Virus record (IMG/VR): IMGVR_UViG_3300049009_000874
Span: 1-64,000 of that record
DNA: 64,000 nucleotides
Source of the DNA: a virus
Taxonomy: Duplodnaviria > Caudoviricetes
Strand: one strand, 5' to 3'
Position 1 is the first letter of the stretch. Every line of letters starts with the position of its first letter. Made by a program: the position numbers and the translations under genes. Under the pieces are notes generated by a model that saw only the letters and a list, made by a program, of their open reading frames with translations, ran no database searches and had not been told where the DNA came from. Shown here piece after piece: positions 3,743 to 53,144 of the stretch.

Positions 3743-3796
3743 GACCTATCTATGGAACACGGGCGACAATTACGCCACAAACAACTATATAGATTT

Positions 3797-4603
3797 ATGG
3801 AAAAATACAGCTTCAGGAAATATGCCGAATGGGCGGATTACGGTTTCAACACCAAGGACGTCAAGGACGAGAAGGTCGTCGGAGGCACCAGGGATGTTTC
3901 CGGTCACAACCCCATGGACATAATACATTCAGGCAAGATAATATCCGAGATAACGGACGGGAAGGACATCGGCAACCTGGTAATGAACCACAGGTTCCAG
4001 AACTTGATCGAGTGGGGGTCGGAGCCCGGCGCGCTACAGATGCAGATCACGCCTCTCGGAAGCTACAAGATAATAACGAGAAGGATGATAAGCGACCTGC
4101 AGGGTCAACCCAAGTGGATATGCAAGAAGATATTCCCGCTAGAGGAAGACATCCACAACACCAGGGAGGAAGGCTACGCCTCCGAGGTCAGGGACTATCT
4201 GGAGTCGCTCAACGGGACGATGCTGGAAACCGCCAAGCCGAAGTTCGAGAAGTTCGACATGCTCTCAAGCAAGATGTTCGCGTCCGTGAGGAAGAACTAC
4301 CCTTCGTACATCATGTTCCCCATCGGCATGGTCAAGAAGAGCGACGACTACCACAAGTACGTGTTCGAGTTCAGGGGTCACGGGGCTGAGGCTCCCGGCA
4401 AGACCAGGGCGGAACAGTTCAACATAGACCTGTATTGGGACGAGAATGCTGGTCTGGTCAAGTGCTGGGGTTACAACATAGATTCGTCCATGCGCCACCA
4501 CACGTGGTACGTGCAGCCTTCCGAGTGGGATGAGTGGTTCGCGCCGTCGCAGGACCACAAGGAGATCATAGAGTCCGTTGTCGCCGCGTTCATGACATAC
4601 TAG
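3797..4603 (+). CDS. Hypothetical protein
   Basis: ORF 3752..4603; likely start MEKYSFRKYAE, 5 nt after CTATATA. Confidence 0.75.
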   Translation: MEKYSFRKYAEWADYGFNTKDVKDEKVVGGTRDVSGHNPMDIIHSGKIISEITDGKDIGNLVMNHRFQNLIEWGSEPGALQMQITPLGSYKIITRRMISDLQGQPKWICKKIFPLEEDIHNTREEGYASEVRDYLESLNGTMLETAKPKFEKFDMLSSKMFASVRKNYPSYIMFPIGMVKKSDDYHKYVFEFRGHGAEAPGKTRAEQFNIDLYWDENAGLVKCWGYNIDSSMRHHTWYVQPSEWDEWFAPSQDHKEIIESVVAAFMTY

Positions 4604-4611
4604 GAGTTCAA

Positions 4612-5058
4612 TTGAGAAGCCCATTCAACATCATCCTGTCGCTGGTCTGCCTTTCAATGCTCGTCATGGCGACCAAGAACAAGAACGAGATCAAGCTCAC
4701 GAAGGCGAACTCCGAGGGGCGTCCCGAAAAGCCGGCGGAGGCGACCTACCCAGGCATCATGGGGAAGGCGAAGTCCGAGGGTAGCCGAGTGGTCTTGGTT
4801 TTCGGGGCTGGATGGTGCGTATGGTGCCAGAAGCTGGAGTCCGAGACGCTGACCGCCTCGAGGGTGAAGTCCAAGATGGACGAGATGAAATTCCTCAAGC
4901 ACAAGGTCGACATCGAGAAAAACAAGGATATAGCCATGAGGTACAACGTCAAGTCCATCCCTGTCCTGATCCTGGTCGATGGCGACGAGAAGGTGGTCAG
5001 GAGGCATGATGGCTACATGAACGTCAAGGACACGGTTTCGTGGCTCGGCATCAACTGA
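4612..5058 (+). CDS. Thioredoxin-like protein with N-terminal hydrophobic signal/anchor
   Basis: FGAGWCVWCQKLE and YNVKSIPVLILVD; AGGAG SD before TTG 4612; hydrophobic IILSLVCLSMLVMA. Confidence 0.8.
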   Translation: MRSPFNIILSLVCLSMLVMATKNKNEIKLTKANSEGRPEKPAEATYPGIMGKAKSEGSRVVLVFGAGWCVWCQKLESETLTASRVKSKMDEMKFLKHKVDIEKNKDIAMRYNVKSIPVLILVDGDEKVVRRHDGYMNVKDTVSWLGIN

Positions 5059-5746
5059 ACTCGTTCGGGAAGGTTTTCCTGAAAAAGTCCCGGGCGTTAT
5101 CGTCGACCCCGTTCTCGTACAGCTTGATGTCGAAATTGAGCCTGGAAAGCATTTCCTCCCTGACCACCTTGGACATGAACGGCGACATCACCACGTAGTA
5201 TGGCGAGATCTTCCCGAAATTCATCCACCTGTACAGGGTACCGTCCGATTCAGCCTTCACGTATTCGGACATCGCCGGGCTTTCGCCGAGCTCCGCCTTC
5301 AGGAACGTCTTCGACTTCCTCAGGGCGTCGAGTATCTTTTGGTTCGAGACTTTCGAAGGCATGGCATCGGTCTTCATGTTGGCTATGGAGTCATACCTCC
5401 TCTTCCAGAGTTTCCACCTTCTCCAAGCCTTGTCGCCTATGAGGCATCCGGCGTCGACTGAAGGATGACCGTCGCCGATCTTGATGTTCTTGAGTATGTC
5501 TATCTGAGCCCTGATGTAGAGGTGGAACTCGTCGTCCTTCACGAGACCGCGGGTTTCCCTGATGAGCTTGTAGCAGAGCTTGAAAAGGTAGCTCTTCCTC
5601 GGGTCTCCCCTGCCCATGCCGGCGTTCTTGTAGTCGGGGAAAGCCTTGCTGCTCTTCTCGACCCAGATGAGACCGACCGTGTAGGCTAGCGATTCGGTCT
5701 CGTCCATCTTGTACTTGACTATGATCTTCTGCACTTCCTTGTCCAT
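5051..5746 (-). CDS. Hypothetical protein, divergent from the structured RNA/PolA locus
   Basis: ORF 5051..5776; AAGGAG SD before ATG 5746; C-terminal GKISPYY only weakly recalls gp59-like proteins. Confidence 0.75.
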   Translation of the reverse strand: MDKEVQKIIVKYKMDETESLAYTVGLIWVEKSSKAFPDYKNAGMGRGDPRKSYLFKLCYKLIRETRGLVKDDEFHLYIRAQIDILKNIKIGDGHPSVDAGCLIGDKAWRRWKLWKRRYDSIANMKTDAMPSKVSNQKILDALRKSKTFLKAELGESPAMSEYVKAESDGTLYRWMNFGKISPYYVVMSPFMSKVVREEMLSRLNFDIKLYENGVDDNARDFFRKTFPNEFS

Positions 5747-5873
5747 GGCAACTCCTTGTGCTATACAATATAGCACACTGCCTATGTTCTTGGCTACCGA
5801 TTTCGTTGGTCGGCGACATTTTTCTCATTGTTGAGAAAGCCAGCCACTTTATTTTATAAAACAAAATTAACCG

Positions 5874-5901
5874 TTGATTTCGTCGGGTTTCTTGGTATCT
5901 T
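5874..5901 (+). promoter_or_regulatory. Sigma70-like promoter firing into the ORF-free structured region
   Basis: TTGATT-16 nt-TATCTT with extended -10 TG. Confidence 0.55.
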
Positions 5902-5907
5902 AACCTT

Positions 5908-6445
5908 AACTTGTCACAGAAACCTTTGAGTAACGAAGACGGTAGCTTTCTCTACCACTTTGGATTCGGGAACTGAATGTACCCCAGCCCGGATCCGACT
6001 TCAGAAGAAACCTGAGCAGCCCTAACGGGTAAGTCTTTGTAGTAATTATTTTACGAATGGCGCCACGAGAGCCATTGTTATGCTCGGAATGCTAGGTAAG
6101 CCTTGGATAGAACAAAAAACGCCGACATCCGTTCTTGCAGACGAGGGAATGGACTAGCCAAGAGTTAGGACGCATAAACTGGTACTGTTGTTTTCGGTTT
6201 TAGGGTCGTCAACCCAAAGTTACGTTCCGTTTCGCGTTGTTTGGTCCGGAAAGCGAAAGAACAAATGTTTTTTTACTTGAAGGCGAAACAATGACGACGC
6301 GTATCGTCTCATTTCGTTTGTCGATCCAACTTGGCGGTATTTTGGGTTGAATGGTGTAGGATATGTTTAAACACAGAGCATTCCATTCGATTCAGATGTA
6401 GAAACAAGAGGATTCAAAGGGAATCCATATGTCTTTTACACTGAA
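5908..6445 (+). ncRNA. Candidate large structured non-coding RNA, family unknown (3' end may be at the T7 run 6268-6274)
   Basis: No listed ORF; many complementary arms, several with G-U pairs on the + strand: 5941-45/5952-56, 5962-70/5988-96, 5997-6001/6031-35, 6056-61/6071-76, 5928-36/6076-85, 6128-34/6147-53, 6410-15/6421-26. Confidence 0.55.
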
Positions 6446-6563
6446 CAAGATACAACACTAAGTCGGCACTCGTTTTATGGTAATTAAAGACAAACTTGGT
6501 AGGAATATACCAATTTGGCTGAATAGTGTTTGTTTTGCGACGATTATCGTGTATCATCCCATC

Positions 6564-7898
6564 ATGTTGCTAACAAACGAAACACAGATGATCTCGGCTC
6601 TAGCCGAACTTGACGCCGAAGGGGTCGTTTACTTCTCCTGCAGCGACGAAATACTCGACTTCACGGACAAGTCGAGGCATGGAGCCTATACGGTGGCTTT
6701 GTCTTCGAAAAAGGGCGTATACGAGTTCCTGGTGCATGACGAGTGGGCTGTTAGGTTGTTCGTGAAGGCTGCGTCGATGACCGTATTCACCAAGGGCAAG
6801 AAGGTCATAGCCTGGGACTGGAAGAATTTCTGCAGCTTCTGCCTCGGGAGACACGGCGTCAAGGTGGTCGTCGAATGCTCCCTGATCGACCTGAAGATAA
6901 TCGAGCATTACGTCGGGTTCAGGAACGAAAAGCCGAAAACGGTCGGCGAGTGCACGAGGCGTCTCAGGTCGGTCGTCGAGTCCGGGTGCTGGGACAAGCT
7001 CCAGGTCGTGTACAAGAGCGTCTACCTTCCCCTCGCCTGCGAGGTTCTCCCGTGCATGGAGACGATAGGCATCCTCGACAGGGAGAAGCTCCACGCCCAC
7101 TACGACATAGCCGGTCAGGAGAACGGGAGGCTGCTCTGCTTCAACGCGTACTCCAGGGGTTACGTGCCGCATGTCCTGACGCAGGAGCAGAAGGAATGCC
7201 TCAAGCCGATAGCGCTGGACCAGCTGTTCGTGTACCTCGACTACAGGAGCATGGAGGTCAGGGTTCTGGAGTGGCTCACGAAGGACGCGGAACTCACGAA
7301 GGCTTGCGAGTCGCCTGACATATACAAGGCTCTGTACGAGACGGTCACCAAGAACGCCTGCGACTCGCCCGAGAAAAGGTCGTTCTGCAAGTCGTTTTTC
7401 CTTCCCGTGTTCTACGGCATGTCGCCGTCCACCCTTTCGGAGAGGCTTGGCGTGTCGCAGTCCACGTCCGAGTCCATAGTGGACAGGGTCAGGAAGATAT
7501 TCCCTACGGCTTACGGTTGGGTCGAGAGGCAACAGGCGGAAGCCAAGGAAGCCGGCTTGTCCACGGATCTTTTCGGCAGGAGGAGGGTTCTGGAGGACAA
7601 GCACTACAGGGCTAGGAACTTCGCGGTCCAGTCGCCGGCGGCTCTGTTCTGCCTGAAAAAGCTCGTGCACCTGCACGAGTCATTGAAGGGCAAGGGTTCC
7701 GTCGCTTATAATGTGCATGACGGATACATGATCTATTCCAGCAGGGAGAATGTCAGGGAGGTGGTTCTGGCGGCGATGTCGGCTCTCCGTTCGGAGGACT
7801 CGGCGTTCCCGTCGCTGAGGATGGAGGTCTCCTGCTCCGTGGGCAGGCGGCTGACGGAGATGAGAGAGTTGAACGTCGCAAAAAAAGGAACAGCATGA
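6564..7898 (+). CDS. Atypical family A DNA polymerase: thumb deleted, degenerate 3'-5' exonuclease
   Basis: Motif A DYRSMEVR, motif B RSFCKSFFLPVFYG, FGRRR, NFAVQS, motif C VHDG; ORF open from 6477, likely start 6564. Confidence 0.8.
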   Translation: MLLTNETQMISALAELDAEGVVYFSCSDEILDFTDKSRHGAYTVALSSKKGVYEFLVHDEWAVRLFVKAASMTVFTKGKKVIAWDWKNFCSFCLGRHGVKVVVECSLIDLKIIEHYVGFRNEKPKTVGECTRRLRSVVESGCWDKLQVVYKSVYLPLACEVLPCMETIGILDREKLHAHYDIAGQENGRLLCFNAYSRGYVPHVLTQEQKECLKPIALDQLFVYLDYRSMEVRVLEWLTKDAELTKACESPDIYKALYETVTKNACDSPEKRSFCKSFFLPVFYGMSPSTLSERLGVSQSTSESIVDRVRKIFPTAYGWVERQQAEAKEAGLSTDLFGRRRVLEDKHYRARNFAVQSPAALFCLKKLVHLHESLKGKGSVAYNVHDGYMIYSSRENVREVVLAAMSALRSEDSAFPSLRMEVSCSVGRRLTEMRELNVAKKGTA

Positions 7899-8458
7899 AA
7901 AGCATATGTCAGTCCTTCCCGATAACGCACATGGAGTTCGAGGAGTTGAACAAGAGTTTCGGGAAGCTTTGCTTCTACGCAGCCCACCAGCTCCAGAAGA
8001 AGAATTCCAAGAACAACTACACCGACGACTTCGACGACATAAACCAGGAGCTCCAGCTATCGATAGTCCGCGCCGGGTCGTACTACAAGAGGCAGATATA
8101 CATAGAGAGGTGTTTCGAGGTCGTCTACGAGTACAATTCCGACCCGTTCCTTCTGGAGGTCGCGAACAAGCTCAGGGACCTGTGGACGAACCGCACGAGG
8201 CACGGAGCCAACCGCCAGAAGTTCGGAGCAAGGCAGGAGGTCATGCTCGAGAGGATGGTCATCAGGACCGTGCCGAGGGGCAAGAGACCCGACAGGATGT
8301 CGCCGCTCACCATCGACACCAAGTTCTCGACGTATTGCAAGGCTATAGTCTGGAACGGGCAGAAGAGCATGGGGAAGAAGATAACCAGGGAGAAGTCGAT
8401 AAGGAGCGGGCAGGTGTCGCTCTCGGAATTTGACTATTTGGGCTCAAGCGAATTATAA
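7895..8458 (+). CDS. Sigma70 region-2-like protein lacking region 4 (candidate phage sigma factor)
   Basis: DDINQELQLSIVRA resembles region 2.2 and TKFSTYCKAIVWN resembles region 2.3-2.4; ATGA overlap with polA. Confidence 0.55.
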   Translation: MKSICQSFPITHMEFEELNKSFGKLCFYAAHQLQKKNSKNNYTDDFDDINQELQLSIVRAGSYYKRQIYIERCFEVVYEYNSDPFLLEVANKLRDLWTNRTRHGANRQKFGARQEVMLERMVIRTVPRGKRPDRMSPLTIDTKFSTYCKAIVWNGQKSMGKKITREKSIRSGQVSLSEFDYLGSSEL

Positions 8459-8515: not shown

Positions 8516-9382
8516 GTGATGCAGCCCTGCGCCCCTTTCTCAAACACATCCATGAAGATAGTATACATACTTAACGAGTTCGAGTTCTACCTGTCTCTGG
8601 CGGTGTGCAGCATGACCACGCTAAGGAGGTACAACCCCGACATCCCGGTCGAGGTGTTCTACGTCTGCGACAGGGGCGAGAACAACAGGAACCTCGGGCG
8701 TCTCCCTTCCGGGAACATGCCCAAGGTAACGAGGAACGAGTTCATGCAATTCTGTTCCGACAAAAACGTCACGGTGAGAATGGTGGAGGACCTGGACATG
8801 GGTTCCGAGTCCAGGTACGCGCCGGTCCAGAGGATGTGCCTGTCCTCCCTGGGGGACGAGAGGGTGATGCTGATGGACGCCGACACGTTCGTGTTCGGCG
8901 ACGTGTCTGCTCTTTTCGGTCTTCTGGACGACTGCGACTTCGTCGCCGACAAGAACAACTACGGGGAGAAGGCGACCATAACGCACAACGGCGTCTGCCT
9001 TCGCCCGTTCAATTCGGGGGTCACGCTTTGGGGCGGTGGCATGCTCCGGGAATACGCCAAGGTCGTGTACGACTACTGCCTCGCGCTCAAGGATAGGAGG
9101 CACTACCTCGGGGAGTGGCTTTACAAGGTTAGTCCCGACGCCATAGGTCGCGAGGAACTAGCCTGCACGCTCTTCGTGGCGGACAGGAAACTGAGGTTCA
9201 GGTATTTCTCCCAGTCCGAGGTCCAGACCGGAAATCACCAGGGCGACACGCTGATCTACCACACGCTCACGCAGAACTGGATGGAATCGTACTTCAGGCT
9301 GAGAGGGCACGTCTTCGGCGAGAGCCGAAACAAGCCGAACATCAAGCCCATGCTGGTATCTCGGAAAAAGCGCTTTACTTGA
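8516..9382 (+). CDS. Glycosyltransferase (GT8-like, GT-A fold)
   Basis: RVMLMDADTFV (DxD) and FNSGVTLW; start 8516, 8519 or 8552. Confidence 0.75.
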   Translation: MMQPCAPFSNTSMKIVYILNEFEFYLSLAVCSMTTLRRYNPDIPVEVFYVCDRGENNRNLGRLPSGNMPKVTRNEFMQFCSDKNVTVRMVEDLDMGSESRYAPVQRMCLSSLGDERVMLMDADTFVFGDVSALFGLLDDCDFVADKNNYGEKATITHNGVCLRPFNSGVTLWGGGMLREYAKVVYDYCLALKDRRHYLGEWLYKVSPDAIGREELACTLFVADRKLRFRYFSQSEVQTGNHQGDTLIYHTLTQNWMESYFRLRGHVFGESRNKPNIKPMLVSRKKRFT

Positions 9383-9421: not shown

Positions 9422-10939
9422 ATGAGACCATTGACGCCAGAAGAGCAGCAGAAACTCGATTCGTTCACGGACCCGGACACGGTGAAGTCAAGGTTCGCCT
9501 GGGACGACACGTTCCAGAGGAAGCTGCTGAGCATGCTGATGTGCGACGACTTCATGCTCATACAGAGCATAGACAAGCTCCAGCCGAACTATTTCAGCAA
9601 CGAAGTCCACGTCATGGTCTGCAAGACGCTTTTCGCCCTCTTCCAGAAGAACAAGGGCGTCCCCAAGAAATGGGTGATGAGCCAGGAGATAACGGACCAG
9701 CTCAAGGACAAGGACAAGTCGGTCCAGCTATACCATCTGGCCGAGCTCGACGCCCTGTACGACTATTACACTCCCGGTGTCGACACCAGGGAGTACCTTC
9801 TCGACAAGGTTACCTATTTCGCGAAGGTGCAGGCTATAAAGGTGGCTTTCCACGGCTGTCTCGAGAAGATGTCCGAGGCTCCGGAGGACGAGGCTACCTG
9901 GACCTACATATACGACAAGATGCGTTCCGCCATGACCGTGGACAGGAGCTACGAGCCCGGTCTCGAGTATTTCCTCAACATCGAGGAGATGTTCAGGAGG
10001 ATGGAGAACCAGTTCGAGGGCAAGGAGAGGTACACCTCCGGATTCGAGTCCATAGACAACGCGTTGACGGGGAACGGGATCTTCAACGGGCAGATAGGGT
10101 CGTGGATAGGTCTCCCCGGCACCGGCAAGAGCTTGGCTCTGGTCAAGGCAGCCGTAGCCAACGTTCTGTTGGGTCACAAGGTCCTCTACCTCACGATGGA
10201 AATGGACGAGCTCGGCATCACGCAGAGGTTCACCTCCCAGTTCGCCAAGATAGACATAAACCTTCTCCTCGAGCAGAGGGAGGAGATCAAGAGGACCATA
10301 GCCGAGTTCGGCAAGGACAAGGATGACAAGAACCTCCTCATAGTCAAGCAGTTCCCCGGAGGCACGGTGGACGTCAACGGCATCAGGGCTTTCTGTTCGC
10401 AGCTGGAGATAAGGGGATGGAAGCCCGGTCTCATCGTGATCGACTATGTCGGCGAGATGAGGGACGACCCGAATGTCAAGAAGTACGAGAGCGCGTACAG
10501 GATATTGAGGGACTTGCGCGGATTTGGGGTGGAGAAGCAGCATTGCACGCTGACATGCGTCCAGCCGAACCAGACAGCCGCCAAGCTCGAGATCAGCCAG
10601 TACATAGACGAGAGCAACATCGGCACGTCTTTCGACCAGTTCAAGCCACTTGATGCGTTCTGGAGCATCAACCAGCAGACCATAGAGAAGGACGCGGAGG
10701 TCGGTCGCGGTTTCGTGATCAAGCACAGGAACGGGAGATCGAGATTTCCTTTCAAGATGGGTTTCGATTTTTCCATGGGAACTCTCGACATATTCGAGAT
10801 ATCAAAGGAACGCTACAAGGAAAGGCTCATGAACGTCCAGCAGAAGCGTTCGGAGGAAATTGAGTTCGACACGTACTCTGTTGACAAGAGGAAGAACAAG
10901 AAACCAAGGAACAGCGTCATAGACGCAGATGAGGAATAA
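9422..10939 (+). CDS. Replicative DnaB/gp41-like helicase
   Basis: GLPGTGKS, VLYLTMEM, LIVIDY, KHRNG. Confidence 0.9.
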   Translation: MRPLTPEEQQKLDSFTDPDTVKSRFAWDDTFQRKLLSMLMCDDFMLIQSIDKLQPNYFSNEVHVMVCKTLFALFQKNKGVPKKWVMSQEITDQLKDKDKSVQLYHLAELDALYDYYTPGVDTREYLLDKVTYFAKVQAIKVAFHGCLEKMSEAPEDEATWTYIYDKMRSAMTVDRSYEPGLEYFLNIEEMFRRMENQFEGKERYTSGFESIDNALTGNGIFNGQIGSWIGLPGTGKSLALVKAAVANVLLGHKVLYLTMEMDELGITQRFTSQFAKIDINLLLEQREEIKRTIAEFGKDKDDKNLLIVKQFPGGTVDVNGIRAFCSQLEIRGWKPGLIVIDYVGEMRDDPNVKKYESAYRILRDLRGFGVEKQHCTLTCVQPNQTAAKLEISQYIDESNIGTSFDQFKPLDAFWSINQQTIEKDAEVGRGFVIKHRNGRSRFPFKMGFDFSMGTLDIFEISKERYKERLMNVQQKRSEEIEFDTYSVDKRKNKKPRNSVIDADEE

Positions 10940-10940
10940 C

Positions 10941-11426
10941 ATGTCAGAGGCTCCATTGGAAAAGGTCACGGTCACGGTCAACGGCAAGGATCTCGTCCTT
11001 GACCCGGAGAACATGAAGTTCAACGAGTTCACGCTCAGCGAGTACATGGACAAGGAATACGCCTGGATAGATTATTTCGGCAAGCAGCTTGAACTGGCGA
11101 CCAAGGAGTTGGCTCTCGCCGAACTTGCTTACGAAACCAAGTTCAACGAGATATTCATAGAGACCAAGGACGGCGGCGGATCCGACACCTACGGGAAGGC
11201 TAAGTCTCAATCACACCCTGATTGCGTAATCCTCCACCAGGCTGTCATAGACAGGAAGTCGGTCGTAGGGTTCCTCAAGTCGCACCTCAAGGCTTGGGAC
11301 AGGAATCACGACAATGCCCAGAACCGAGGACACACTCTCAGGAAGGAACTCGACAAGCTCAACAAGGACATCTACCATAAGAAGGATGATGGTCTATGTG
11401 AGGCGGAGGACTTTCTTGGAAAATAG
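10941..11426 (+). CDS. UvsY-like recombination mediator
   Basis: Helical ~160-aa protein next to the helicase; size and C-terminal pattern (LKAWDRNHDNAQNRG) resemble UvsY. Confidence 0.55.
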   Translation: MSEAPLEKVTVTVNGKDLVLDPENMKFNEFTLSEYMDKEYAWIDYFGKQLELATKELALAELAYETKFNEIFIETKDGGGSDTYGKAKSQSHPDCVILHQAVIDRKSVVGFLKSHLKAWDRNHDNAQNRGHTLRKELDKLNKDIYHKKDDGLCEAEDFLGK

Positions 11427-11433
11427 GGGAACG

Positions 11434-11937
11434 ATGGATCAGAAAATAAGATGGGTCACCAAAAGGGACATGTCGTCCATAACCACTATCGAGTCGGTTT
11501 CGTTCTCGAAGCCATGGAAGAGGTCCGACTTCGAGAAATGTCTCGGCGACCCGACCAACAACAGGATAGGAAAGGTTTTCGAGGTCGATGGCGAGGTTGT
11601 CGGGTTCATAATATATGAACTACAGTTCGACAGGTTCTACATCATAAACATGGCTGTCATCCCTAGCCACAGAAAGCGTGGCATAGCCAGGGAAATGATA
11701 GATCACGTGACGTCGAAGCTCAAGAACGGATACAAGCGCAGGAGGAAGGTGGAGACATACGTTTCCGACCATTTCCTTGATGCCCACATTTTCTTCAAGA
11801 GGGTCGGGTTTAGGGCTATAGGGGTCGAAAGGGATTTTTTCGGCAAGGATTCCGGCGACGCCTACCTTTTCTGCTACCGCTCAGACAGTCTCGGTTTCGA
11901 CTTTGACGATTCCGTCTTCGTCGGGGACTACGCATGA
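11434..11937 (+). CDS. RimI-like GNAT acetyltransferase
   Basis: VVGFIIYEL, INMAVIPSHRKRGIA acetyl-CoA motif, FFKRVGF, DAYL. Confidence 0.85.
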   Translation: MDQKIRWVTKRDMSSITTIESVSFSKPWKRSDFEKCLGDPTNNRIGKVFEVDGEVVGFIIYELQFDRFYIINMAVIPSHRKRGIAREMIDHVTSKLKNGYKRRRKVETYVSDHFLDAHIFFKRVGFRAIGVERDFFGKDSGDAYLFCYRSDSLGFDFDDSVFVGDYA

Positions 11938-12386
11938 GCGACAAGTGGGACTTGAGGTTCATAGGTCTGGCGAAACACGTCTCGTCGTGGAGCAAGGACC
12001 AGTCCACAAGGGTCGGAGCAGTCATATTCGACCGCGACAATAGGGTCATATCCGTTGGCTACAACGGTTTCCCCAGAGGGGTCGGCGATGACCCTTCGAG
12101 GTATGCCGACCGCGAACTCAAGTACAAGATGGTTGTCCACGCGGAAATGAACGCCATCATGTTCGCCGGCTGCGACCTCAAGGGCTGTTCCATAGCGACC
12201 TACCCGTTCATGTCCTGCTCCGCCTGCGCAGCGTCGATAATACAGTCCGGCATATCGCGGTGCGTCGCGCCGACGCTCACCGAGGATCTGGCTGCAAGAT
12301 GGCAATCAAGCTGCGATATCGCGACGATGATGTTCAGGGAGTCCGGAGTCGAGCTCAAGCTTGTGGATCACGTTTCGATTCCGTGA
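11934..12386 (+). CDS. dCMP deaminase
   Basis: SKDQSTRVGAVI, GYNGFPRG, VHAEMNAI, SCSACA. Confidence 0.92.
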   Translation: MSDKWDLRFIGLAKHVSSWSKDQSTRVGAVIFDRDNRVISVGYNGFPRGVGDDPSRYADRELKYKMVVHAEMNAIMFAGCDLKGCSIATYPFMSCSACAASIIQSGISRCVAPTLTEDLAARWQSSCDIATMMFRESGVELKLVDHVSIP

Positions 12387-13491
12387 AGTCCTTGAATTTC
12401 TGGATTGCCGAGGCTACGCTCTGGTCCATGTCGAGATATTTGTACTCCCCAAGACGACCGCCGAATATCACGTTGCTTGGCTTTATCGACTTGTACTTCT
12501 GGTACATTTCGGAATTAGCCTTGTCGCGTATCGGATAGAAAGGGTCTGGGTTGTCCCTGTAGGGCACGGGAATGTCGTAGGTCACCACGCTCTCCCTATT
12601 TTGGCTCGCCGCGTCGTAGTGCTTGACCGACTCGCCATGCCTGTAGAAATGCCGGTGTTCGATGCTTCGTATGTGCGGCACCGAGTCGTCGGCGTAGTTG
12701 ACCACGGCATTGCCCTGGAAGTCCCCCGGATGGATTTCCTTGGTAAAGCGCAGCGTGTTGTATTCGAGCTTGCCGAATTCGAATCCGAAGAATTCGTCGA
12801 CCGGTCCCGTATACACGACATACTTGCACATGGACGAGAGCCTTTCCCTTTCCTTGATGAAGTCTACCTTGGTGTCCACGTCTATGCCATCCAGCATTTT
12901 CGTTATGAGGTTCGTGTATCCGTTCTGCGGCACACCTTGGTGCTTGGTCGTGAAGTAGTTCTCGTCGTACGTGAGCCTTATGGGGATCCTCTGTATGATT
13001 GAGGCTGGAAGTTCCCTTGGTTCCCGCATGTATTGCTTCTTCGTGTAACCGTAGAAGAATTTCCTGTAGATCTCCTCGCCGACCATGGATAGAGCCCACT
13101 CCTCGAAGTTCGAAGGCTTGTCTATCTTGACCCTAACCTCGTCAAGTTTCCTCGAGGCTTCGGAAGGCGTCTTCACGCCCCACATCTGGTGCAGAGTCAT
13201 GAGGTTTATGGGGAAGGAGTACATGACGCCCCCGCTCAGAACCTTCGGTCTGTTGACGAACGGAGTGAACTTCTCGAATTGGTTGACGAAGTTCCACACC
13301 TCCTCGCTGTGCGTGTGGAATATGTGGGCGCCGTAGGACGACACGTAGTAGTCGTCGTGTTTCGTGTCATGGGCTGCGCCGGCTATGTGGTCTTTCTTTT
13401 CGACCACCAGGCACTTCATCCCGGAATCGGTCGCCTTCCTCGCAAACGAAGAACCGAAGAAGCCAGATCCTACAATCAGAAAATCGTACAT
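12355..13491 (-). CDS. glf: UDP-galactopyranose mutase
   Basis: IVGSGFFG, YGAHIFHT, GYTKKQ, PFYPI, GRLGEYKYLDMDQ. Confidence 0.93.
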   Translation of the reverse strand: MYDFLIVGSGFFGSSFARKATDSGMKCLVVEKKDHIAGAAHDTKHDDYYVSSYGAHIFHTHSEEVWNFVNQFEKFTPFVNRPKVLSGGVMYSFPINLMTLHQMWGVKTPSEASRKLDEVRVKIDKPSNFEEWALSMVGEEIYRKFFYGYTKKQYMREPRELPASIIQRIPIRLTYDENYFTTKHQGVPQNGYTNLITKMLDGIDVDTKVDFIKERERLSSMCKYVVYTGPVDEFFGFEFGKLEYNTLRFTKEIHPGDFQGNAVVNYADDSVPHIRSIEHRHFYRHGESVKHYDAASQNRESVVTYDIPVPYRDNPDPFYPIRDKANSEMYQKYKSIKPSNVIFGGRLGEYKYLDMDQSVASAIQKFKDFTESKRDPQA

Positions 13492-15443: not shown

Positions 15444-15505
15444 AACTTTTGTGTAACTTTTGTGTAACTTTTGTGTAACTTTTGTGTAACTTTTGTGTAA
15501 CTTTT
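15444..15505 (+). repeat. Perfect 11-bp tandem repeat (AACTTTTGTGT)x5 plus a partial copy, in the ssb leader
   Basis: Read directly; preceded by hairpin 15418-15442; ends 18 nt before ATG 15524. Confidence 0.95.
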
Positions 15506-15523
15506 AACCTACGAGGTGTAACG

Positions 15524-16567
15524 ATGTCACTTGACTTTGAAGAACTTGACGTAAACGAATTGAGATCAGAATCCAAGAGGGTAAACTCAGAATCCACCGG
15601 CGGCGGTGGCGGCTACAGCGATGAGTACCTCGAGAAGTTTGTGAGGCTTCCCGAACGAGACGGCTTCGTTCTGATGAGATTGCTGCCAAAGAGGAAAGGT
15701 CAGAAACTCTATTGCGCAACCAGAACCCACATGCTTACGAACCCAACCACCAGACAGAAGAAGAGCATCCATTGTCCGAAGGTGTTGACAAGCACCGATA
15801 AGGGCGACATGTGGAAGGGCGAATGCATAATATGCAAATACTACAGCGACCTCTGGCAGAAATCCGACTCCTGCTCCGGCAAGGAACAGGAAGACCTCCA
15901 GAACAAGGCTAGGGAACTCAAGCCCCTTGAGCGGTACTACTACAACGTTATCGTTCGGTCAGAGAGCGACCCGAAAAACAAATCCGTGGTCAACACCAAT
16001 GTTGGACCGAAGATATACAGCTGCGGCAAGCAGGTTCACGCTCGCATACTGCGAGCCATACTCGGCGACGAAGCCGCTGGCGAGAAGGGTCTTGGCGACA
16101 TAACCAACCCGACTACCGGCAGGGATTTCCGTCTCGTGAAGAAGGTCGTGAAGAGCGGCAACCGTGAGTATCCCAACTACGACCATTCCAAGTTCGAGGA
16201 CGTCTCATCTGCTGGAACACCAGCCGAACTCGAGAAATGGCTGAGCAATCTCAACGATCTCCAGGGCTTGAGGAAGCTGAGGACTGTCGACGAGATGAAG
16301 CATGCCCTCCGTGTGCATGTAGGCATGGTGGTCGAAGGCGACAGATCTGCTGACAGCGAACTTGACGAGTTCAGGAACGCGGACGCCAGCATGCTGAAGT
16401 CTGCCAGATCAAGCCAAGGATCCAATTCCAGTTCGTCCGTCATATCTGGCGCAGACAACATCAACGAGGAAGCCATAAAGCCAAAGCCATCCGCCAAGTC
16501 GGCTATCGAGGATGACTCGACATCGCTCGCGGACGAGGAGTTCATGAAGGATCTGGAAGGAATTTAG
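15524..16567 (+). CDS. T4 gp32-like single-stranded DNA-binding protein
   Basis: MRLLP, H...CPK...CIIC Zn ligands, RYYYNVIVR, GRDFRLVKK, YPNYDHSKF, acidic tail; GAGG SD. Confidence 0.88.
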   Translation: MSLDFEELDVNELRSESKRVNSESTGGGGGYSDEYLEKFVRLPERDGFVLMRLLPKRKGQKLYCATRTHMLTNPTTRQKKSIHCPKVLTSTDKGDMWKGECIICKYYSDLWQKSDSCSGKEQEDLQNKARELKPLERYYYNVIVRSESDPKNKSVVNTNVGPKIYSCGKQVHARILRAILGDEAAGEKGLGDITNPTTGRDFRLVKKVVKSGNREYPNYDHSKFEDVSSAGTPAELEKWLSNLNDLQGLRKLRTVDEMKHALRVHVGMVVEGDRSADSELDEFRNADASMLKSARSSQGSNSSSSVISGADNINEEAIKPKPSAKSAIEDDSTSLADEEFMKDLEGI

Positions 16568-16589
16568 TTCCCTCTTGCTTTCAAATTGA

Positions 16590-16625
16590 GGGCGCTGGCA
16601 TTTCTTATGTCCGCGCCCATTTTTT
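16590..16625 (+). terminator. Intrinsic terminator after ssb
   Basis: GGGCGC...GCGCCC stem followed by ATTTTTT. Confidence 0.7.
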
Positions 16626-16654
16626 CACATCTAAAAAACAAAAAGAGGTTTCAA

Positions 16655-17857
16655 ATGGCTAAGAAAAAAGTCGGCGAAGAAGATTCGTTTTTCCAAGATT
16701 TGGCTAGCAAGACTGGCGGAGACATAGTGGCGAACATAGACAGCGTCAAGTATTTCGTGGACGCTGGGAATCTAGCCGTGAACTACATATGCAGCGGTCG
16801 GTTCATGGGCGGCGGCATACCGGGGGGCAAGTTGACCGAGATATACGGTCCATCCTCGTCTTCGAAGTCGCTGATAGGAACAAATATACTTTTCGGCTGC
16901 CAGAGGGCTGGCGGCGTGGCGATACTTGAGGACTGCGAGAATTCCGCGAACAAGGAATTCATACAGATGGCTTCCCACTGTGACCTTTCGAGGATAGTCA
17001 GGCACACGCCGCAGACGCTCGAGGAGGTTTTCCACAAGATGTACAAGTCCATGGAATTCATCCGGTCCAAGAAGAAGGACGGTCCGATAGCCATAGTTTA
17101 CGACTCTATAGGGGTCAGCCCTTCCGCCAGGGAACTGAGGGAGGTCGACTTGCCGGAGAATGCCTCGAAAGCTGACTTCAAGCGCATCGTTGGCGGCAAT
17201 GAACAGCCTGGCGAACGTGCCAAGATTTGTTCCAGGGAATTCCGCAAGCTAAACACCGTCATGGAGAAGAACGACGCCACCGTCGTTATCCTCAACCAGA
17301 CGAGGTCTAAGATAGGAGTCATGTACGGCAATCCGACCACCACCGCCGGCGGCGGCAACGCGTTGCCTTTCTATGCCTCATGTCGATTGGAAACGTCGAC
17401 GATGAAGAAGATAGAGTACAAGCTGTCAGCCAAGAAGACAAAGATTCTCGGCATAAACATCAGGATAAAAAACGTCAAGAACAAGACCCACAGACCGTTT
17501 ATTTCGACCGAGAACATTCAGTTGCTTTTCGAACACGGGATAAACCCGGTCAGCGGTCTTCTTTCCTGCCTTATGGACGCCAACAGGGTTGTCGCCAAGG
17601 GCACCGGGTATTTCATCGTGTCTGAGCCGTACTGCAACGGGGAGGAAGTAAAATTCAAGGCTTCCCTCGAGAAGAACGAGGTTCCGATCGAAGTTCTCCT
17701 GAGGTGTCCGTCCATCATAGACGCCGCTTCCGAGGAAGAGGTCTCTGAATACCTCGCTCCTTTCAAGGCAGCCATGGATTTCCAGATTTCTGGCGACATC
17801 ATAGAGACCGACATCGTTGGCGAGTCGGACGATGACATTGACTCGGAAGTGGAATAG
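16655..17857 (+). CDS. uvsX: RecA/UvsX recombinase
   Basis: GGGIPGGKLTEIYGPSSSSKS, IVYDSI, ILNQTRSKIGVMYGNPTTTAGGGNALPFYAS, VKNK; GAGG SD. Confidence 0.9.
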   Translation: MAKKKVGEEDSFFQDLASKTGGDIVANIDSVKYFVDAGNLAVNYICSGRFMGGGIPGGKLTEIYGPSSSSKSLIGTNILFGCQRAGGVAILEDCENSANKEFIQMASHCDLSRIVRHTPQTLEEVFHKMYKSMEFIRSKKKDGPIAIVYDSIGVSPSARELREVDLPENASKADFKRIVGGNEQPGERAKICSREFRKLNTVMEKNDATVVILNQTRSKIGVMYGNPTTTAGGGNALPFYASCRLETSTMKKIEYKLSAKKTKILGINIRIKNVKNKTHRPFISTENIQLLFEHGINPVSGLLSCLMDANRVVAKGTGYFIVSEPYCNGEEVKFKASLEKNEVPIEVLLRCPSIIDAASEEEVSEYLAPFKAAMDFQISGDIIETDIVGESDDDIDSEVE

Positions 17858-20812: not shown

Positions 20813-21643
20813 ATGGGATTCTCCCTGGTTGTTTTGTATTCGGAAGACCGAAGGTCGCAGTTTCTGAATTCGGTCGAGTGCTGGGGCGATTGCCCCGGCT
20901 ACGCGTCGGCGCAGAAGATCCTTTGCGTAGACGGGGAATCCGATATTTCGATAGAAGGCTGGACGATCCTCAAGATAGGGCGAGCCGGCGATTTCTTCTG
21001 CTGGGCTGACAGCATCAACAAGGGTGTCGGCTTGGCTTCCGAGGAAATTGTCTTCTATATGGATTCGGACCGTATAGTTCCGACCGACTGGTTTTCCGAA
21101 TGCTGCTCTCTGTTGTCCGCCGATAAAAATCGTTTCCTGTACCCATCTAGGCTGTATTCCCTGAAAAGCCATGTCGGCGTCGACGCCCTGCGGGAAATAA
21201 GGGACAATGTCGGTTCGAACGAGCGGCTGCTGACGCCAGACCACAGGCAGGACGACCCGAAGGTCTACGGAAGAAAGAACCCGTTCTCCGGATGCGTAGC
21301 CTTTGGGAGATCGGCTTTTTTGGATTGCGGTGGGTTTGACGGGAGATTCGTCGGCTGGGGATACCCGGACTACGATTTCATGATGAAGGTCAAGGCTCGC
21401 GGGATTCCCTTGATCCCGATCGACGCCTCGGAACTTCACCAAAGACACGAATACGCCATCGACAGGAGGATGTTCAGGATGCACAACCTGTACAACCTGC
21501 GCCAGTATGTCGAGAAGTGGGATCTCCCCAGAGACCATCTGGAGAGGGTGGCGGAGAACATCGGCGTCGACAGGCGCCATCTCTATGGTAGCGAATCGCT
21601 GAGGCGATTCCTGTCTTTGGTCAACGGACCGACGCTTGGCTGA
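20813..21643 (+). CDS. Glycosyltransferase family 2-like
   Basis: INKGVGLA, YMDSD, GGFDGRFVGWGYPDYDF. Confidence 0.85.
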   Translation: MGFSLVVLYSEDRRSQFLNSVECWGDCPGYASAQKILCVDGESDISIEGWTILKIGRAGDFFCWADSINKGVGLASEEIVFYMDSDRIVPTDWFSECCSLLSADKNRFLYPSRLYSLKSHVGVDALREIRDNVGSNERLLTPDHRQDDPKVYGRKNPFSGCVAFGRSAFLDCGGFDGRFVGWGYPDYDFMMKVKARGIPLIPIDASELHQRHEYAIDRRMFRMHNLYNLRQYVEKWDLPRDHLERVAENIGVDRRHLYGSESLRRFLSLVNGPTLG

Positions 21644-26104: not shown

Positions 26105-26737
26105 ATGTCTATTATCGGTTTCGCTTCGCAGTTGGCTATGGGCAAGGATACGGCTGCCGACTACCTGAACGACGAGATGAATCGTCTGGGAATCTTCGGA
26201 AAATGGGAAAGGTCAGCCTTCGCCAACGCCGTAAAGGAGACATTCTGCACGTCTTTCGGCGTAGACCGCCAGTTCCTGGAGAAATGGAAGCGCATAGATG
26301 AAGCCCCACCGGGTATGAACATGAACGTGCGGAAGGCTTTGCAGTTCATAGGCGACGGATTCCGGCAGATCAGGGAGAACATCTGGATAGAGATAGCCCT
26401 GAGGAACAAGGGTAGAAAGCTCATAATATCCGATTGCAGGTACATCAATGAAGCCAAGCACATAAGGCGCCATGAGGGCATAAATATCATACTTTACAGA
26501 CCGAACTACATCAACGACGACCCGAATCCGTCCGAGTCGCAGATGCGAACCATGATAGATTGGTGCTTGCGCACGCAGAAAGAGGGCGCCATATCGCACA
26601 GCACGGAAAACCCTCCGGAAGGAAGCCAGTATTACGATTTCTTCCTTATAAACGATGGCGACATACCGCAGCTGCACGGCAAGATAAGGAATTTGCTCAT
26701 ACCTTACATAGAGAGGACTTACGGATGCCAAATCTAA
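26105..26737 (+). CDS. Deoxynucleoside monophosphate kinase (T4 gp1-like)
   Basis: IIGF...GKDTAA, FANAVK, RKALQFIG, IISDCRYINE, SE. Confidence 0.85.
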   Translation: MSIIGFASQLAMGKDTAADYLNDEMNRLGIFGKWERSAFANAVKETFCTSFGVDRQFLEKWKRIDEAPPGMNMNVRKALQFIGDGFRQIRENIWIEIALRNKGRKLIISDCRYINEAKHIRRHEGINIILYRPNYINDDPNPSESQMRTMIDWCLRTQKEGAISHSTENPPEGSQYYDFFLINDGDIPQLHGKIRNLLIPYIERTYGCQI

Positions 26738-29322: not shown

Positions 29323-30198
29323 ATGCATGATGTTCTGGAAAACATACCAAACAAGACGATCAAGTGTCTGGACAAGGGTCACGTGACCATAATGGACACC
29401 ATGCCCAGACTGGTCCCGGACGACAGGAAAACCGCCGACTACGCCATCGTGCAGGCTGCGAGGGTGTCCTACGGCGACGGAACGAAGACGGTCAACGAGG
29501 ACCGCGGTCTCATACGCTACCTCATGAGGCACAAGCACACTACCCCGATGGAGATGATAGATTTCAAGTTCTGCATGAAAATGCCCATATTCGTAGCAAG
29601 GCAGATGATACGTCACCGGGCTGCCAGCGTGAACGAATACAGCGGACGCTATTCAATCATGAGGGACGAGTTCTATATGCCAGAAGCCGAAAACGTCAGG
29701 GCTCAGTCCAAGACCAACAGGCAGGGCGGCGAAGAACCAATGAGAAACAGCGATGCTGTAGGGTTTCTCTCCGACCTGGAATCAATATGCTCCAAGTCAT
29801 ACCAGAACTATGAGTCCAGCATGGCTTGCGGGATCTCGAGGGAGCAAGCCAGAATGCTCTTGCCCGTCAATTTGTACACGGAGTGGTACTGGAAGATAGA
29901 CGCCCACAACCTCCTTCATTTTCTGGCTCTGAGGTGCGACAGCCACGCTCAGATGGAGATAAGGGTTTTCGCAGATGCGATACTGGAACTCATCAAGCCG
30001 ATAATCCCCTTGACGATTGAGGCTTGGGAAGACTACAGCGAGCATAGGGGCGCGAGAAAGATAACGAGGCTCGAGCTTGACGCCATCAAGTCCTCGCTCG
30101 AAGGGTCGATGGTCGATAAAATAAACTCGGATAATTCCAGAGAGCAAGCGGAATGGGCGGAAAAGGCGAAAATCATGGGGCTTCAGGTCAGGAAATAA
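29323..30198 (+). CDS. thyX: Flavin-dependent thymidylate synthase
   Basis: AARVSY, HTTPME, RHRAASVNEYSGRY, EQARMLLP, LRCDSHAQMEIR. Confidence 0.95.
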   Translation: MHDVLENIPNKTIKCLDKGHVTIMDTMPRLVPDDRKTADYAIVQAARVSYGDGTKTVNEDRGLIRYLMRHKHTTPMEMIDFKFCMKMPIFVARQMIRHRAASVNEYSGRYSIMRDEFYMPEAENVRAQSKTNRQGGEEPMRNSDAVGFLSDLESICSKSYQNYESSMACGISREQARMLLPVNLYTEWYWKIDAHNLLHFLALRCDSHAQMEIRVFADAILELIKPIIPLTIEAWEDYSEHRGARKITRLELDAIKSSLEGSMVDKINSDNSREQAEWAEKAKIMGLQVRK

Positions 30199-38886: not shown

Positions 38887-38928
38887 CTCCCTCATGTCTT
38901 TTCCAGGCGCGAGTAAGTGGGTTTCGCT

Positions 38929-53093: not shown

Positions 53094-53144
53094 TATCTAT
53101 AGTAGCTTGATGGAATATTTCTCTTATTGGAAAAGGCAAAAGCC

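Follow-up and report, generated by a model that had tools for sequence, protein, structure and literature searches.

The window, a 64,000-nt stretch of DNA that is part of a phage of about 0.5 Mb, encodes a family A DNA polymerase that lacks a thumb and lies within a block of replication genes. The polymerase gene and the features around it are given here.

5911–6184 (+): conserved structured non-coding RNA of about 270 nt, about 380 nt upstream of the polymerase start (subclade only)
6564–7898 (+): thumbless family A polymerase CDS, 444 aa (Pfam, homologues, AlphaFold2 model, fold search)
7895–8458 (+): 187-aa protein, its start overlapping the stop codon of the polymerase (ATGA); genomic context
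9422–10939 (+): DnaB-like replicative helicase
15482–16567 (+): gp32-like SSB, same replication/recombination module
16586–17857 (+): RecA/UvsX-like recombinase, same replication/recombination module
38917–40284 (+): split Pol III alpha (DnaE-type), N-terminal part, presumed main replicase
53127–55883 (+): split Pol III alpha, C-terminal part

The polymerase lies in an open reading frame that spans 6477–7898 on the plus strand. The ORF call would allow a start at 6477, but the Met at 6564, where the alignments of 420–460-aa homologues begin, is the likely start. The 444-aa product matches Pfam PF00476 at 90.5 bits (cut-off 34.3, E 1.4e-25), with the match covering only profile positions 104–378 of 381. 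A profile built from 30 homologues finds KlenTaq at E 1e-29, and hhalign to Klenow gives a probability of 98.9%. The AlphaFold2 model has a pLDDT of 93.7 and a pTM of 0.92, and a fold search with it returns Klenow at Z 26.5 over 412 of the 444 residues, in agreement with the original prediction of a family A polymerase at 6564–7898. RNA polymerase structures reach only Z 7.8–9.0, against 20–28 for DNA polymerases; these weak matches and an invariant steric-gate glutamate (E231) led us to reject a T7-like single-subunit RNA polymerase.

At least 212 clusters (50% identity, E ≤ 1e-30) have the thumbless form of about 440 aa. Nearly all of the 150 clusters listed are 400–470 aa long, the exceptions being a few fragments and proteins extended at the N-terminus, and the thumbless-polymerase clusters of the protein Atlas are 97–100% viral. 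Comparison of dN/dS among homologues had been proposed as a means of recognising random decay; the values for the polymerase are 0.05–0.12 in pairs with dS of 0.08–0.9, which means strong purifying selection. That the gene is a decaying pseudogene or an annotation artefact is refuted by this selection and has next to no chance of being right. Nothing beyond the missing thumb speaks for it, and the hundreds of intact homologues and the high pLDDT of the model speak against it too.

The polymerase sits in the core replication block at every one of 81 related loci and is two genes from dnaB, which is syntenic, in 76 of them. Five large relatives (343–595 kb, one rated 100% complete) each carry exactly one PolA, always of the thumbless type; Pol III alpha is present in all five and PolB in none. 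The phage has a split DnaE and its relatives are without a second PolA or PolB, and the thumbless enzyme is therefore auxiliary. Because Pol III alpha is encoded both by the window and by all five of these genomes, we rejected a role as sole replicase. A DnaG/TOPRIM primase was found in three of the five genomes searched, the complete one included, and a Prim-Pol match in one relative only, so that a role as sole primase is unlikely.

Thumb deletion and the catalytic core

A thumb is normally counted among the standard parts of a right-hand polymerase. Here the chain passes almost directly from an exonuclease-fold domain into the palm, and the landmarks along the polymerase are as follows.

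6564–7058 (+): vestigial 3'-5' exonuclease (DEDD-fold) domain, residues 1 to about 165 (fold search, alignment)
7059–7088 (+): thumb-deletion junction E166...K175, METIGI-LDRE-KLHAHY (AlphaFold2 model, profile, hhalign)
7122–7130 (+): N187-G188-R189, equivalent to Klenow T-G-R668, primer-terminus minor-groove contact; invariant
7239–7256 (+): motif A, from D226 (metal ligand, Klenow D705) to E231 (steric-gate Glu, Klenow E710); both invariant
7377–7418 (+): motif B/O-helix with R272, K276, L280 (position 762), P281 (763), Y284 and G285 (alignment)
7617–7634 (+): motif 6 remnant N352...Q356-S357 (Klenow N845, Q849), after a deletion of about 11 residues (alignment)
7716–7724 (+): motif C, H385-D386-G387 (HDG for HDE); invariant in 30 sequences

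In the 30-homologue profile, 106 KlenTaq residues face four profile positions. Profile positions 170–421 align to KlenTaq 264–530, and positions 144–165 (consensus iYkkvylPLllevipelEtvgi) to KlenTaq 137–157; this shorter segment scores 0.6 bits and is not significant alone, but it is collinear. The hhalign alignment to Klenow starts at Klenow residue 651. The AlphaFold2 model likewise shows no thumb: helix 143–168 leads directly into the palm hairpin 175–193, no helices lie between 168 and 207, and the H–I coiled coil is absent. The sequence-based proposal that the thumb is deleted, with LPCMETIGI nearly abutting the first palm motif, is thus upheld by the profile and by the structural model that had been suggested as its check. 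Two further changes formed no part of that proposal: a second deletion of about 11 residues before motif 6 (the Taq SVREAAERMAF segment), and the exchange of PNLQNIP for G-Y-V-P-H. What remains of palm and fingers is about 275 residues. Of the 10 Klenow residues listed as contacting the DNA backbone (PMC10520511), at least eight fall in segments that are deleted or replaced here.

Residues 1 to about 165 match the Rrp6, RNase D and ExnV1 folds at Z 10.5–11.7. The ExoI position is occupied by an invariant D-F-T (D32-F33-T34) and not by DxE in 30 sequences, and no conserved acids were found at the ExoII and ExoIII positions, mapped by motif order, in the same set. The DEDD fold is kept and the catalytic set is gone, as anticipated from the missing ExoI DxE when the domain was called an exonuclease relic. 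Four other residues of the N-terminal domain (W84, K87, E114 and R133) are invariant as well. Together with the DFT they exceed the needs of a structural relic, which hints at an unrecognised binding function.

Conservation of the polymerase motifs was scored over 30 homologues at 31–53% identity. D226, E231, R272, K276, Y284, G285 and H385-D386-G387 are invariant or nearly so, and D226, D386, R272, K276 and Y284 align to Taq D610, D785, R659, K663 and Y671. The residues that read the minor groove and the template (R189, N352, Q356, H385 and Y284) are invariant. Position 762 is leucine in at least 90% of the homologues and position 763 is an invariant proline. Motif C departs from His-Asp-Glu family-wide, with Gly387 in place of the glutamate. 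Both the retained residues noted from the single sequence (the motif A aspartate, R/K/YG of motif B and HD of motif C) and the three substitutions noted there recur across these homologues. Mutation of the corresponding Klenow residue, E883, lowers kcat 26-fold and leaves activity in place (PMC3241644), and by analogy loss of the motif C glutamate would be survivable. Given the invariant HDG and the loss of at least eight of the ten backbone contacts, activity could nonetheless be very low or the substrate unusual.

Possible roles of the enzyme

Our best explanation, which we hold at somewhat better than even chances, is that the protein is a functional, template-directed, primer-extending family A polymerase, auxiliary to the DnaE-type replicase, which would carry out distributive short-patch gap filling or repair, maybe while tethered. 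Such an enzyme would be composed of palm, fingers and a dead exonuclease-fold domain. With no thumb and most of its upstream-duplex contacts lost, it would bind DNA weakly, add few nucleotides per encounter and have no proofreading. Its short-patch synthesis would belong to the replication/recombination module and may take place where Okazaki fragments leave gaps, or on intermediates of recombination and repair; this would be the polymerase part of the job that bacterial Pol I does beside Pol III. According to PMC10061031, which cites Minnick 1996, a thumb-truncated Klenow is active with reduced processivity and fidelity. The original prediction of an enzyme that is non-processive or needs a partner is, by analogy, a reasonable one. 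Of the three roles it offered, gap filling is the best fit for a phage that encodes a DnaE-type replicase of its own. The invariance of the minor-groove and template readers makes nucleotidyl transfer without a template unlikely, and priming is the less likely role for the reasons given below.

Another replisome protein may hold the polymerase on DNA. The 187-aa protein lies downstream of the polymerase in 81 of 81 loci and is directly adjacent in nearly all, with an identity of 48–97% across loci (55–77% without the near-identical L003 and the outlier L076). Its model is all-helical and sigma region-2-like with an inserted bundle, and its top matches are sigma region-2 structures at Z 5.6–7.2. 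Profile searches against PDB and Pfam gave nothing significant, with Sigma70_r2 at E 0.05 in two of 19 members. This fold, with no polymerase thumb among its fold matches, does not support the protein as a thumb in trans. The thioredoxin encoded at about 4654–5058 was rejected as a processivity factor of the T7 kind: synteny holds in only 24 of the 81 loci, and the polymerase has no thumb loop for binding it. The searches thus identified no thumb substitute. Three further products, orf241 (5051–5776, minus strand), orf283 and orf165, have no Pfam, PHROG or PDB-sequence match. Pfam profiles for the beta-clamp, gp45-clamp and 5'-3' exonuclease, like tblastn queries with the flap nucleases of Immutovirus and Mel-JY01, gave no match in the phage's own 189-kb record or in a 527-kb relative, where divergence may hide such proteins. 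Flap nuclease and clamps being undetected, these searches point to no Okazaki-maturation partner or tether, which counts against the favoured role.

Among the alternatives, a lesion-bypass or low-fidelity polymerase of the Pol nu, Pol theta or actinobacterial APEX/PolA2 kind, with an open cleft for damaged or hypermodified phage DNA, is unlikely, though it comes before the others. A repair function has been suggested for PolA2 enzymes with an inactive exonuclease (PMC12926913), and the present protein has a dead exonuclease, leucine at 762 and the HDG motif C. In addition, genes for a dCMP deaminase, a dNMP kinase, a thymidylate-synthase-like enzyme and several glycosyltransferases lie in the window, and these could be a sign of modified DNA. 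The best structural match of the model is human Pol nu at Z 28.2, but Pol nu, Klenow and other Pol I lie within 2–3 units of one another, so that ranking first says nothing about function. The surroundings showed no SOS or repair-specific context. At each locus the gene lies in the core replication block. It is slightly less probable again that the protein is a primase-polymerase or initiator like staphylococcal CcPol-MP or the TV-Pols, in which loss of the thumb, last helix included, would admit the initiating NTP and de novo DNA primers would be made for DnaB. CcPol is itself a truncated A-family polymerase that primes with a small partner (PMC7581432, PMC10061031), and the proximity of dnaB and the small conserved protein downstream recall that arrangement. 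Priming is nevertheless the less likely role because complete relatives carry a DnaG/TOPRIM primase, which lowers the need for de novo synthesis, and because the helical 187-aa neighbour is not like the OB-fold, SSB-like MP; the readers of a pre-existing primer-template minor groove are, moreover, invariant. A catalytically dead or near-dead scaffold that binds DNA ends or replisome proteins seems the least probable of the readings weighed in this section. The family-wide loss of the motif C glutamate, the loss of the thumb and most duplex contacts, and the strongly conserved non-catalytic residues of the N-terminal domain would suit it. Against it, both metal-ligand aspartates (D226 and D386) and all dNTP-binding residues (R272, K276 and Y284) are invariant across 31–53% identity, which would be unexpected without catalysis, and the Klenow E883 mutant is still active.

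Pol I extends RNA II of ColE1, and the polymerase might similarly work with the RNA upstream of it, either extending an RNA primer at an origin or copying the RNA. We give this little credence, a shade more than the scaffold and less than priming by the polymerase itself. The element occurs in 47 of the 81 loci and, in every match on polymerase-centred loci, lies about 250–650 nt upstream on the same strand. RNAalifold predicts 42 pairs, and 35 of these show at least two Watson-Crick pair types; G:U exceeds A:C in the alignment on the plus strand only, and Rfam holds no match at E ≤ 1. The RNA is, however, detectable in a subclade only: neither a covariance model of the core nor a motif scan recovered it from more distant loci, and it is absent upstream of Immutovirus divPolA1. 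The GC skew of the 527-kb complete relative, a genome in which the RNA was not detected, places no origin or switch at the polymerase locus, and an origin there was rejected on this basis; the phage's own contig starts too near the locus for such a reading. Neither the steric-gate glutamate nor the DNA-type readout residues suggest RNA templating, and the RNA may be adjacent simply through synteny or as a 5' leader. Similarly improbable is the stronger form, in which polymerase and RNA would be one device, with the RNA priming synthesis, or with the RNA or another bound factor replacing the thumb by docking on the residues that are invariant in the inactive exonuclease domain. If true, RNA priming would be a start of DNA synthesis in huge phages like that of ColE1 RNA II and Pol I.

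Comparison with known family A polymerases

A large viral family dispenses with the thumb under strong purifying selection, and its gene keeps a constant position among the replication genes of 0.35–0.6 Mb phages that have a Pol III-type replicase. This raises the question of how a family A palm–fingers core works without a grip on the duplex, for which distributive synthesis, tethering and a special substrate are candidates. The protein is also a naturally minimal family A polymerase for enzymology and engineering.

By sequence and by fold (Z 25–26.5) the closest known structures are Klenow, KlenTaq and Bst. Motifs 2, A, B, 6 and C are collinear with theirs, and the two-domain arrangement of exonuclease fold and polymerase superposes as one body. 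Unlike the Pol I large fragment, the phage protein has no thumb (about 100 residues) and no 5' nuclease domain, its exonuclease domain is dead and shortened, and it differs by L-P at 762/763, HDG, the replaced PNLQNIP and the deletion before motif 6.

Two groups of truncated enzymes resemble it in part. CcPol-MP of SCCmec and the PolA-SSB pairs of Bacillota mobile elements share a partial exonuclease domain, a shortened thumb, a helicase neighbour and a small conserved gene that follows (PMC7581432, PMC10061031). CcPol, however, keeps a short thumb and has an OB-fold SSB-like partner where the present neighbour is helical and sigma-like, and the relatives of the present phage have a DnaG-type primase. 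The divPolA2 of barbaviruses (PMC11348598) is likewise a second, divergent PolA without a recognisable thumb in a phage that has another replicase. It differs in its novel N-terminal globular domain with no exonuclease fold, its variable neighbourhood and its RNA-polymerase-like structural matches, whereas the present protein keeps the exonuclease fold in the canonical place and a fixed replication context.

The nearest counterpart is divPolA1, described from sequence analysis in 14 genomes of 155–190 kb phages and given the same reading as we propose here (Yutin et al. 2024, Virol J 21:200, PMC11348598). In Flavobacterium phage vB_FspM_immuto and its relatives it is a protein of about 440 aa with a truncated thumb, an exonuclease domain without catalytic acids and the palm residues kept; it is extra to a 'regular' polymerase and heads a replication block with DnaB, SSB and RecA. 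The present polymerase shows the same traits, with a regular polymerase in the phage and replication genes downstream, and both families have QS for QG in motif 6 and a small residue for the motif C glutamate. The two share 17–18% identity. BLASTP against Immutovirus divPolA1 gives E 0.45, which is not significant, whereas hhalign gives a probability of 89.7% (E 1.8e-6) for Immutovirus QQO91919 and 87.2% (E 3.8e-6) for a three-sequence profile, collinear over 329–341 columns; the huge-phage divPolA1-like LR756508 homologue alone gives 0.5%. Thumb loss is more complete here, with a linker of 4–6 residues against about 23 in Immutovirus, and motif C is HDG where divPolA1 has YDA. A stand-alone 5'-3' exonuclease lies near divPolA1 loci and was not found in the 189-kb record or the 527-kb relative. 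The present family, in contrast to divPolA1, occurs in phages of about 0.35–0.6 Mb whose regular polymerase is of the DnaE type. Judged from these alignments, common descent is likely, which would make the present family a distant relative of divPolA1, though it may instead be a parallel lineage. The 2024 observation, made in 14 mid-sized phage genomes, now extends to huge phages.

Fold, active site and selection of the polymerase

The window covers the initial 64 kb of an IMG/VR virus record 189 kb long. CheckV puts the completeness of this record at 39%, so the whole phage should measure about 0.5 Mb. The polymerase gene lies in an open frame at 6477..7898 (+). The protein most likely has 444 residues, because the 30 database homologues of 421-461 aa, and a further fragment of 401 aa, start to align at an internal Met at 6564. 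It scores 90.5 bits against Pfam DNA_pol_A (cut-off 34.3 bits), with the match confined to profile positions 104-378 of 381.

The original prediction described a Pol I-like enzyme with the thumb deleted, and profile alignment to KlenTaq, hhalign comparison with Klenow and an AlphaFold2 model all bear this out. Positions 170-421 of the 30-homologue profile align with KlenTaq 264-530 (E 1e-28), and positions 144-165, a helix terminating in a conserved Met-Glu-x-x-Gly, align with KlenTaq 137-157; the latter match is weak alone (0.6 bits) and collinear with the former. Together these segments place 106 KlenTaq residues, the thumb, opposite 4 positions in the polymerase family. The hhalign match to E. 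coli Klenow (98.9%, E 2e-17) starts at Klenow residue 651. In the model (pLDDT 93.7, pTM 0.92), helix 143-168 runs directly into the palm hairpin bearing R189. Superposition on Klenow 331-928, a check proposed with the prediction, matched 412 of 444 residues as a single body, with Z 26.5 and an rmsd of 3.1 Å; Z was 28.2 for human Pol nu and 20-26 for further enzymes of the Pol I type. The predicted fold has no space for a thumb, and its N-terminal domain occupies the place of the exonuclease domain, not that of the thumb.

That domain (residues 1 to ~165) matches the DEDD exonuclease fold of Rrp6, RNase D and phage ExnV1 (Z 10.5-11.7). It had been called an exonuclease relic without the ExoI DxE, and the ExoI position indeed reads D-F-T in all 30 homologues, among which no conserved catalytic acid set was found in this domain. 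Several of its residues are invariant (D32-F33-T34, W84, K87, E114 and R133), which suggests that the relic may now bind something.

The active site is conserved in the pattern predicted. Among the 30 homologues, motif A keeps an invariant D226 and steric-gate E231, motif B retains R272, K276, Y284 and G285, and motif C is an invariant H385-D386-G387, so that the Asp, R/K/YG and HD are all present. The claimed substitutions are also seen: Leu at position 762 (L280), an invariant Pro at 763 (P281), and HDG for HDE. Residues that read the minor groove and primer terminus are invariant, namely R189 (Klenow R668), N352 (N845), Q356 (Q849) and H385 (H881). The family has two further changes absent from the prediction: G-Y-V-P-H stands in place of PNLQNIP, and ~11 residues are deleted ahead of motif 6. 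PMC10520511 lists 10 Klenow residues that contact the DNA backbone; these two changes and the loss of the thumb together take away 8 or more of them.

An exhaustive HMMER search at E<=1e-30 returned 212 clusters (50% identity). Nearly all of the best 150 are 400-470 aa long; the few exceptions are fragments or proteins with an N-terminal extension. Matching clusters in the protein Atlas are 97-100% viral, and 122 IMG/VR stretches encode relatives, on contigs of up to 527 kb; the best 80 stretches were retained for comparison. The gene is under purifying selection, with pairwise dN/dS of 0.05-0.12 wherever dS is unsaturated (0.08-0.9). These ratios, which the prediction had named as a check, and the large family of nearly uniform length refute random decay into a pseudogene.

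Replication neighbourhood

The polymerase sits in a block, orf241(-)/polymerase/orf187/DnaB/orf165, that is syntenic across 81 related loci. The protein orf187 is present in all 81, DnaB in 76, and the conserved neighbours orf241, orf165 and orf283 in 71, 70 and 57, respectively.

3752-4603, + strand: orf283, conserved and syntenic
5051-5776, - strand: orf241, conserved and syntenic
10929-11426, + strand: orf165, conserved and syntenic, overlapping the end of dnaB
38917-40284 and 53127-55883, + strand: split Pol III alpha (DnaE-type), two genes about 13 kb apart
8516-9382, 11934-12386, 12355-13491 (-), 20813-21643, 26105-26737, 29323-30198 and 30245-31624: seven sugar/nucleotide enzyme genes, jointly

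Neither orf241, orf283 nor orf165 matched anything in Pfam, PHROG or PDB sequences; orf165 could be a helicase accessory protein. Farther 3' lie a dCMP deaminase, a gp32-like SSB and a RecA-like recombinase, and 5' of the polymerase are an SF2 helicase and a thioredoxin-like gene. The latter, two genes away (4654-5058, +), encodes a thioredoxin-fold protein with a WCVWC motif and is syntenic in only 24 of 81 loci, which makes a T7-style thioredoxin-polymerase link unlikely. Interleaved with the replication genes are GT8-like and GT2-like glycosyltransferases, UDP-galactopyranose mutase, dCMP deaminase, dNMP kinase, a thymidylate-synthase-family enzyme and an HldE-like kinase/cytidylyltransferase, a set that may serve DNA hypermodification or sugar decoration of proteins.

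The Pol III alpha split recurs in four large relatives, and in LR756511.1 one gene encodes all 1183 aa. In each of five large relatives (343-595 kb, of which one is rated 100% complete) one short-type PolA occurs together with Pol III alpha, and no PolB was found. Searches of five genomes gave a DnaG/TOPRIM primase in three, the 100%-complete relative among them; the two without a hit were the incomplete record to which the window belongs and a relative of 85% completeness. The polymerase is therefore neither the sole polymerase nor the sole candidate primase, and its gene context points to an auxiliary enzyme fixed in the replication module.

Directly 3' of the polymerase, orf187 (187 aa; 7895-8458, +) begins in an ATGA overlap with the polymerase stop. 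Its identity is 55-77% in most loci, above the polymerase's 34-54%, with mean column identity of about 70% across the clade. We asked whether orf187 could supply the thumb in trans or act as an OB-fold partner like MP, and its model (pLDDT 81) supports neither: it is all-helical, and sigma-factor region-2 domains account for at least 14 of the top 50 structural matches (Z 5.6-7.2, each weak, the enrichment consistent). The region-2-like fold carries a ~65-residue helical insertion, and sigma region 4 is absent. On this model orf187 is best read as a sigma-region-2-only protein, with no evident sign that it is a polymerase subunit; nothing corresponding to it stands beside divPolA1, the thumb-truncated second PolA of Immutovirus. 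Its nearly invariant C-terminus, V-S-L-S-E-F-D-Y-L, may resemble the hydrophobic clamp-binding tails of T4 gp55, gp33 and gp43.

A structured RNA upstream of the polymerase gene

Between orf241 and the polymerase lie ~790 nt without an ORF (5777-6563), which contain the following element.

5911-6184, + strand: structured RNA element of ~270 nt (nhmmer, RNAalifold)

The element was found by nhmmer in 47 of 81 loci. In all hits on polymerase-centred loci it lies about 250-650 nt 5' of the polymerase on the same strand, and this also applies to loci whose polymerases share just 38-40% identity. RNAalifold supports 42 pairs, 35 with at least two Watson-Crick pair types, and G:U exceeds A:C (45 vs 22) on the + strand only. 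At its core several helices meet in a junction, which carries a near-invariant GUCUUUGUAG and a hairpin loop of sequence ACG(A/G)G(A/G). Several loci have -10-like TATAAT boxes 5' of the element, and weak terminator-like hairpins occur at 6293-6308 and 6410-6426. Rfam gave no match. A covariance model of the core found nothing in more distant loci, and the element is absent 5' of the Immutovirus divPolA1 gene, so it cannot be a partner that every member of the polymerase family requires. In a complete relative, a genome in which the element was undetected, GC skew does not point to an origin at the polymerase locus. We consider it very improbable that the RNA is functionally linked to the polymerase, whether through RNA-primed initiation or as a cofactor.

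Proposed role and comparison with known systems

The polymerase coexists with a DnaE-type replicase, DnaB, SSB and a RecA-like protein, and in relatives with a DnaG-type primase. Judged by its conserved residues, it would be an active DNA-dependent DNA polymerase, and the steric-gate Glu argues for dNTPs as substrate. Mutation of Klenow E883 lowered kcat 26-fold and did not abolish activity (PMC3241644). By analogy with thumb-truncated Klenow, described as distributive and frameshift-prone in work cited in PMC10061031, it would share both properties unless tethered. Such an enzyme would most likely perform short-patch synthesis, for example Okazaki gap filling or synthesis on repair or recombination intermediates, and would resemble the polymerase half of Pol I's job beside Pol III. 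Phages with divPolA1 encode a separate 5'-3' exonuclease within the same block, which fits a 'split Pol I'. The main gap in the gap-filling explanation is that Pfam profiles (and tblastn for the nuclease) detected neither a 5'-3' nuclease nor a sliding clamp in the 189-kb record or a 527-kb relative. The observation in the original prediction is confirmed and its interpretation partly supported: the reduced Klenow-like core stands, and non-processivity or dependence on a partner is suggested by analogy.

Czernecki et al. 2023 (PMC10201439) distinguish 19 PolA subfamilies, some with 'broken' thumbs, and the passages considered describe none of them as thumbless. The other precedent for a truncated A-family polymerase is the staphylococcal CcPol-MP primase (PMC7581432, PMC10061031); unlike the polymerase described here, it keeps a short thumb and has an OB-fold partner. 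Yutin et al. 2024 (PMC11348598) reported divPolA1 in 14 phages of 155-190 kb, Flavobacterium phage vB_FspM_immuto and relatives; its thumb is truncated, its exonuclease domain inactivated and its set of palm residues conserved. The phages have it on top of a regular family A, B or C polymerase, and a conserved replication block follows its gene. In Immutovirus the 441-aa protein heads a block with SSB, RecA, 5'-3' exonuclease and DnaB.

Proteins of the divPolA1 type also occur in LR756508.1, a 484-kb uncultured phage (7001-8359; 29% identical to that of Immutovirus), and in the 190-kb cyanophage Microcystis phage Mel-JY01 (5947-7173; 27%). The Mel-JY01 gene is annotated only as hypothetical and is followed by RecA, a stand-alone Pol I-type 5' nuclease and a gp41-like helicase.

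By hhalign, the polymerase family matches divPolA1 with a probability of 87-90% (E 2-4e-6) and an identity of 17-18%; the 329-341 aligned columns are collinear and cover both domains. BLASTP between the polymerase and Immutovirus divPolA1 is not significant, and one huge-phage divPolA1-like sequence alone reaches 0.5% against the family by hhalign. The two groups share QS for QG in motif 6, and both have a small residue where the motif C Glu would stand; these oddities favour common descent, with parallel loss of the thumb a less likely alternative. The deletion is more radical here, with a linker of 4-6 residues vs about 23 in Immutovirus divPolA1, and the phages are much larger than those of 155-190 kb. 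The polymerase represents a more extreme and much larger variant of the recently noticed thumb-truncated, proofreading-dead second PolA of large phages.
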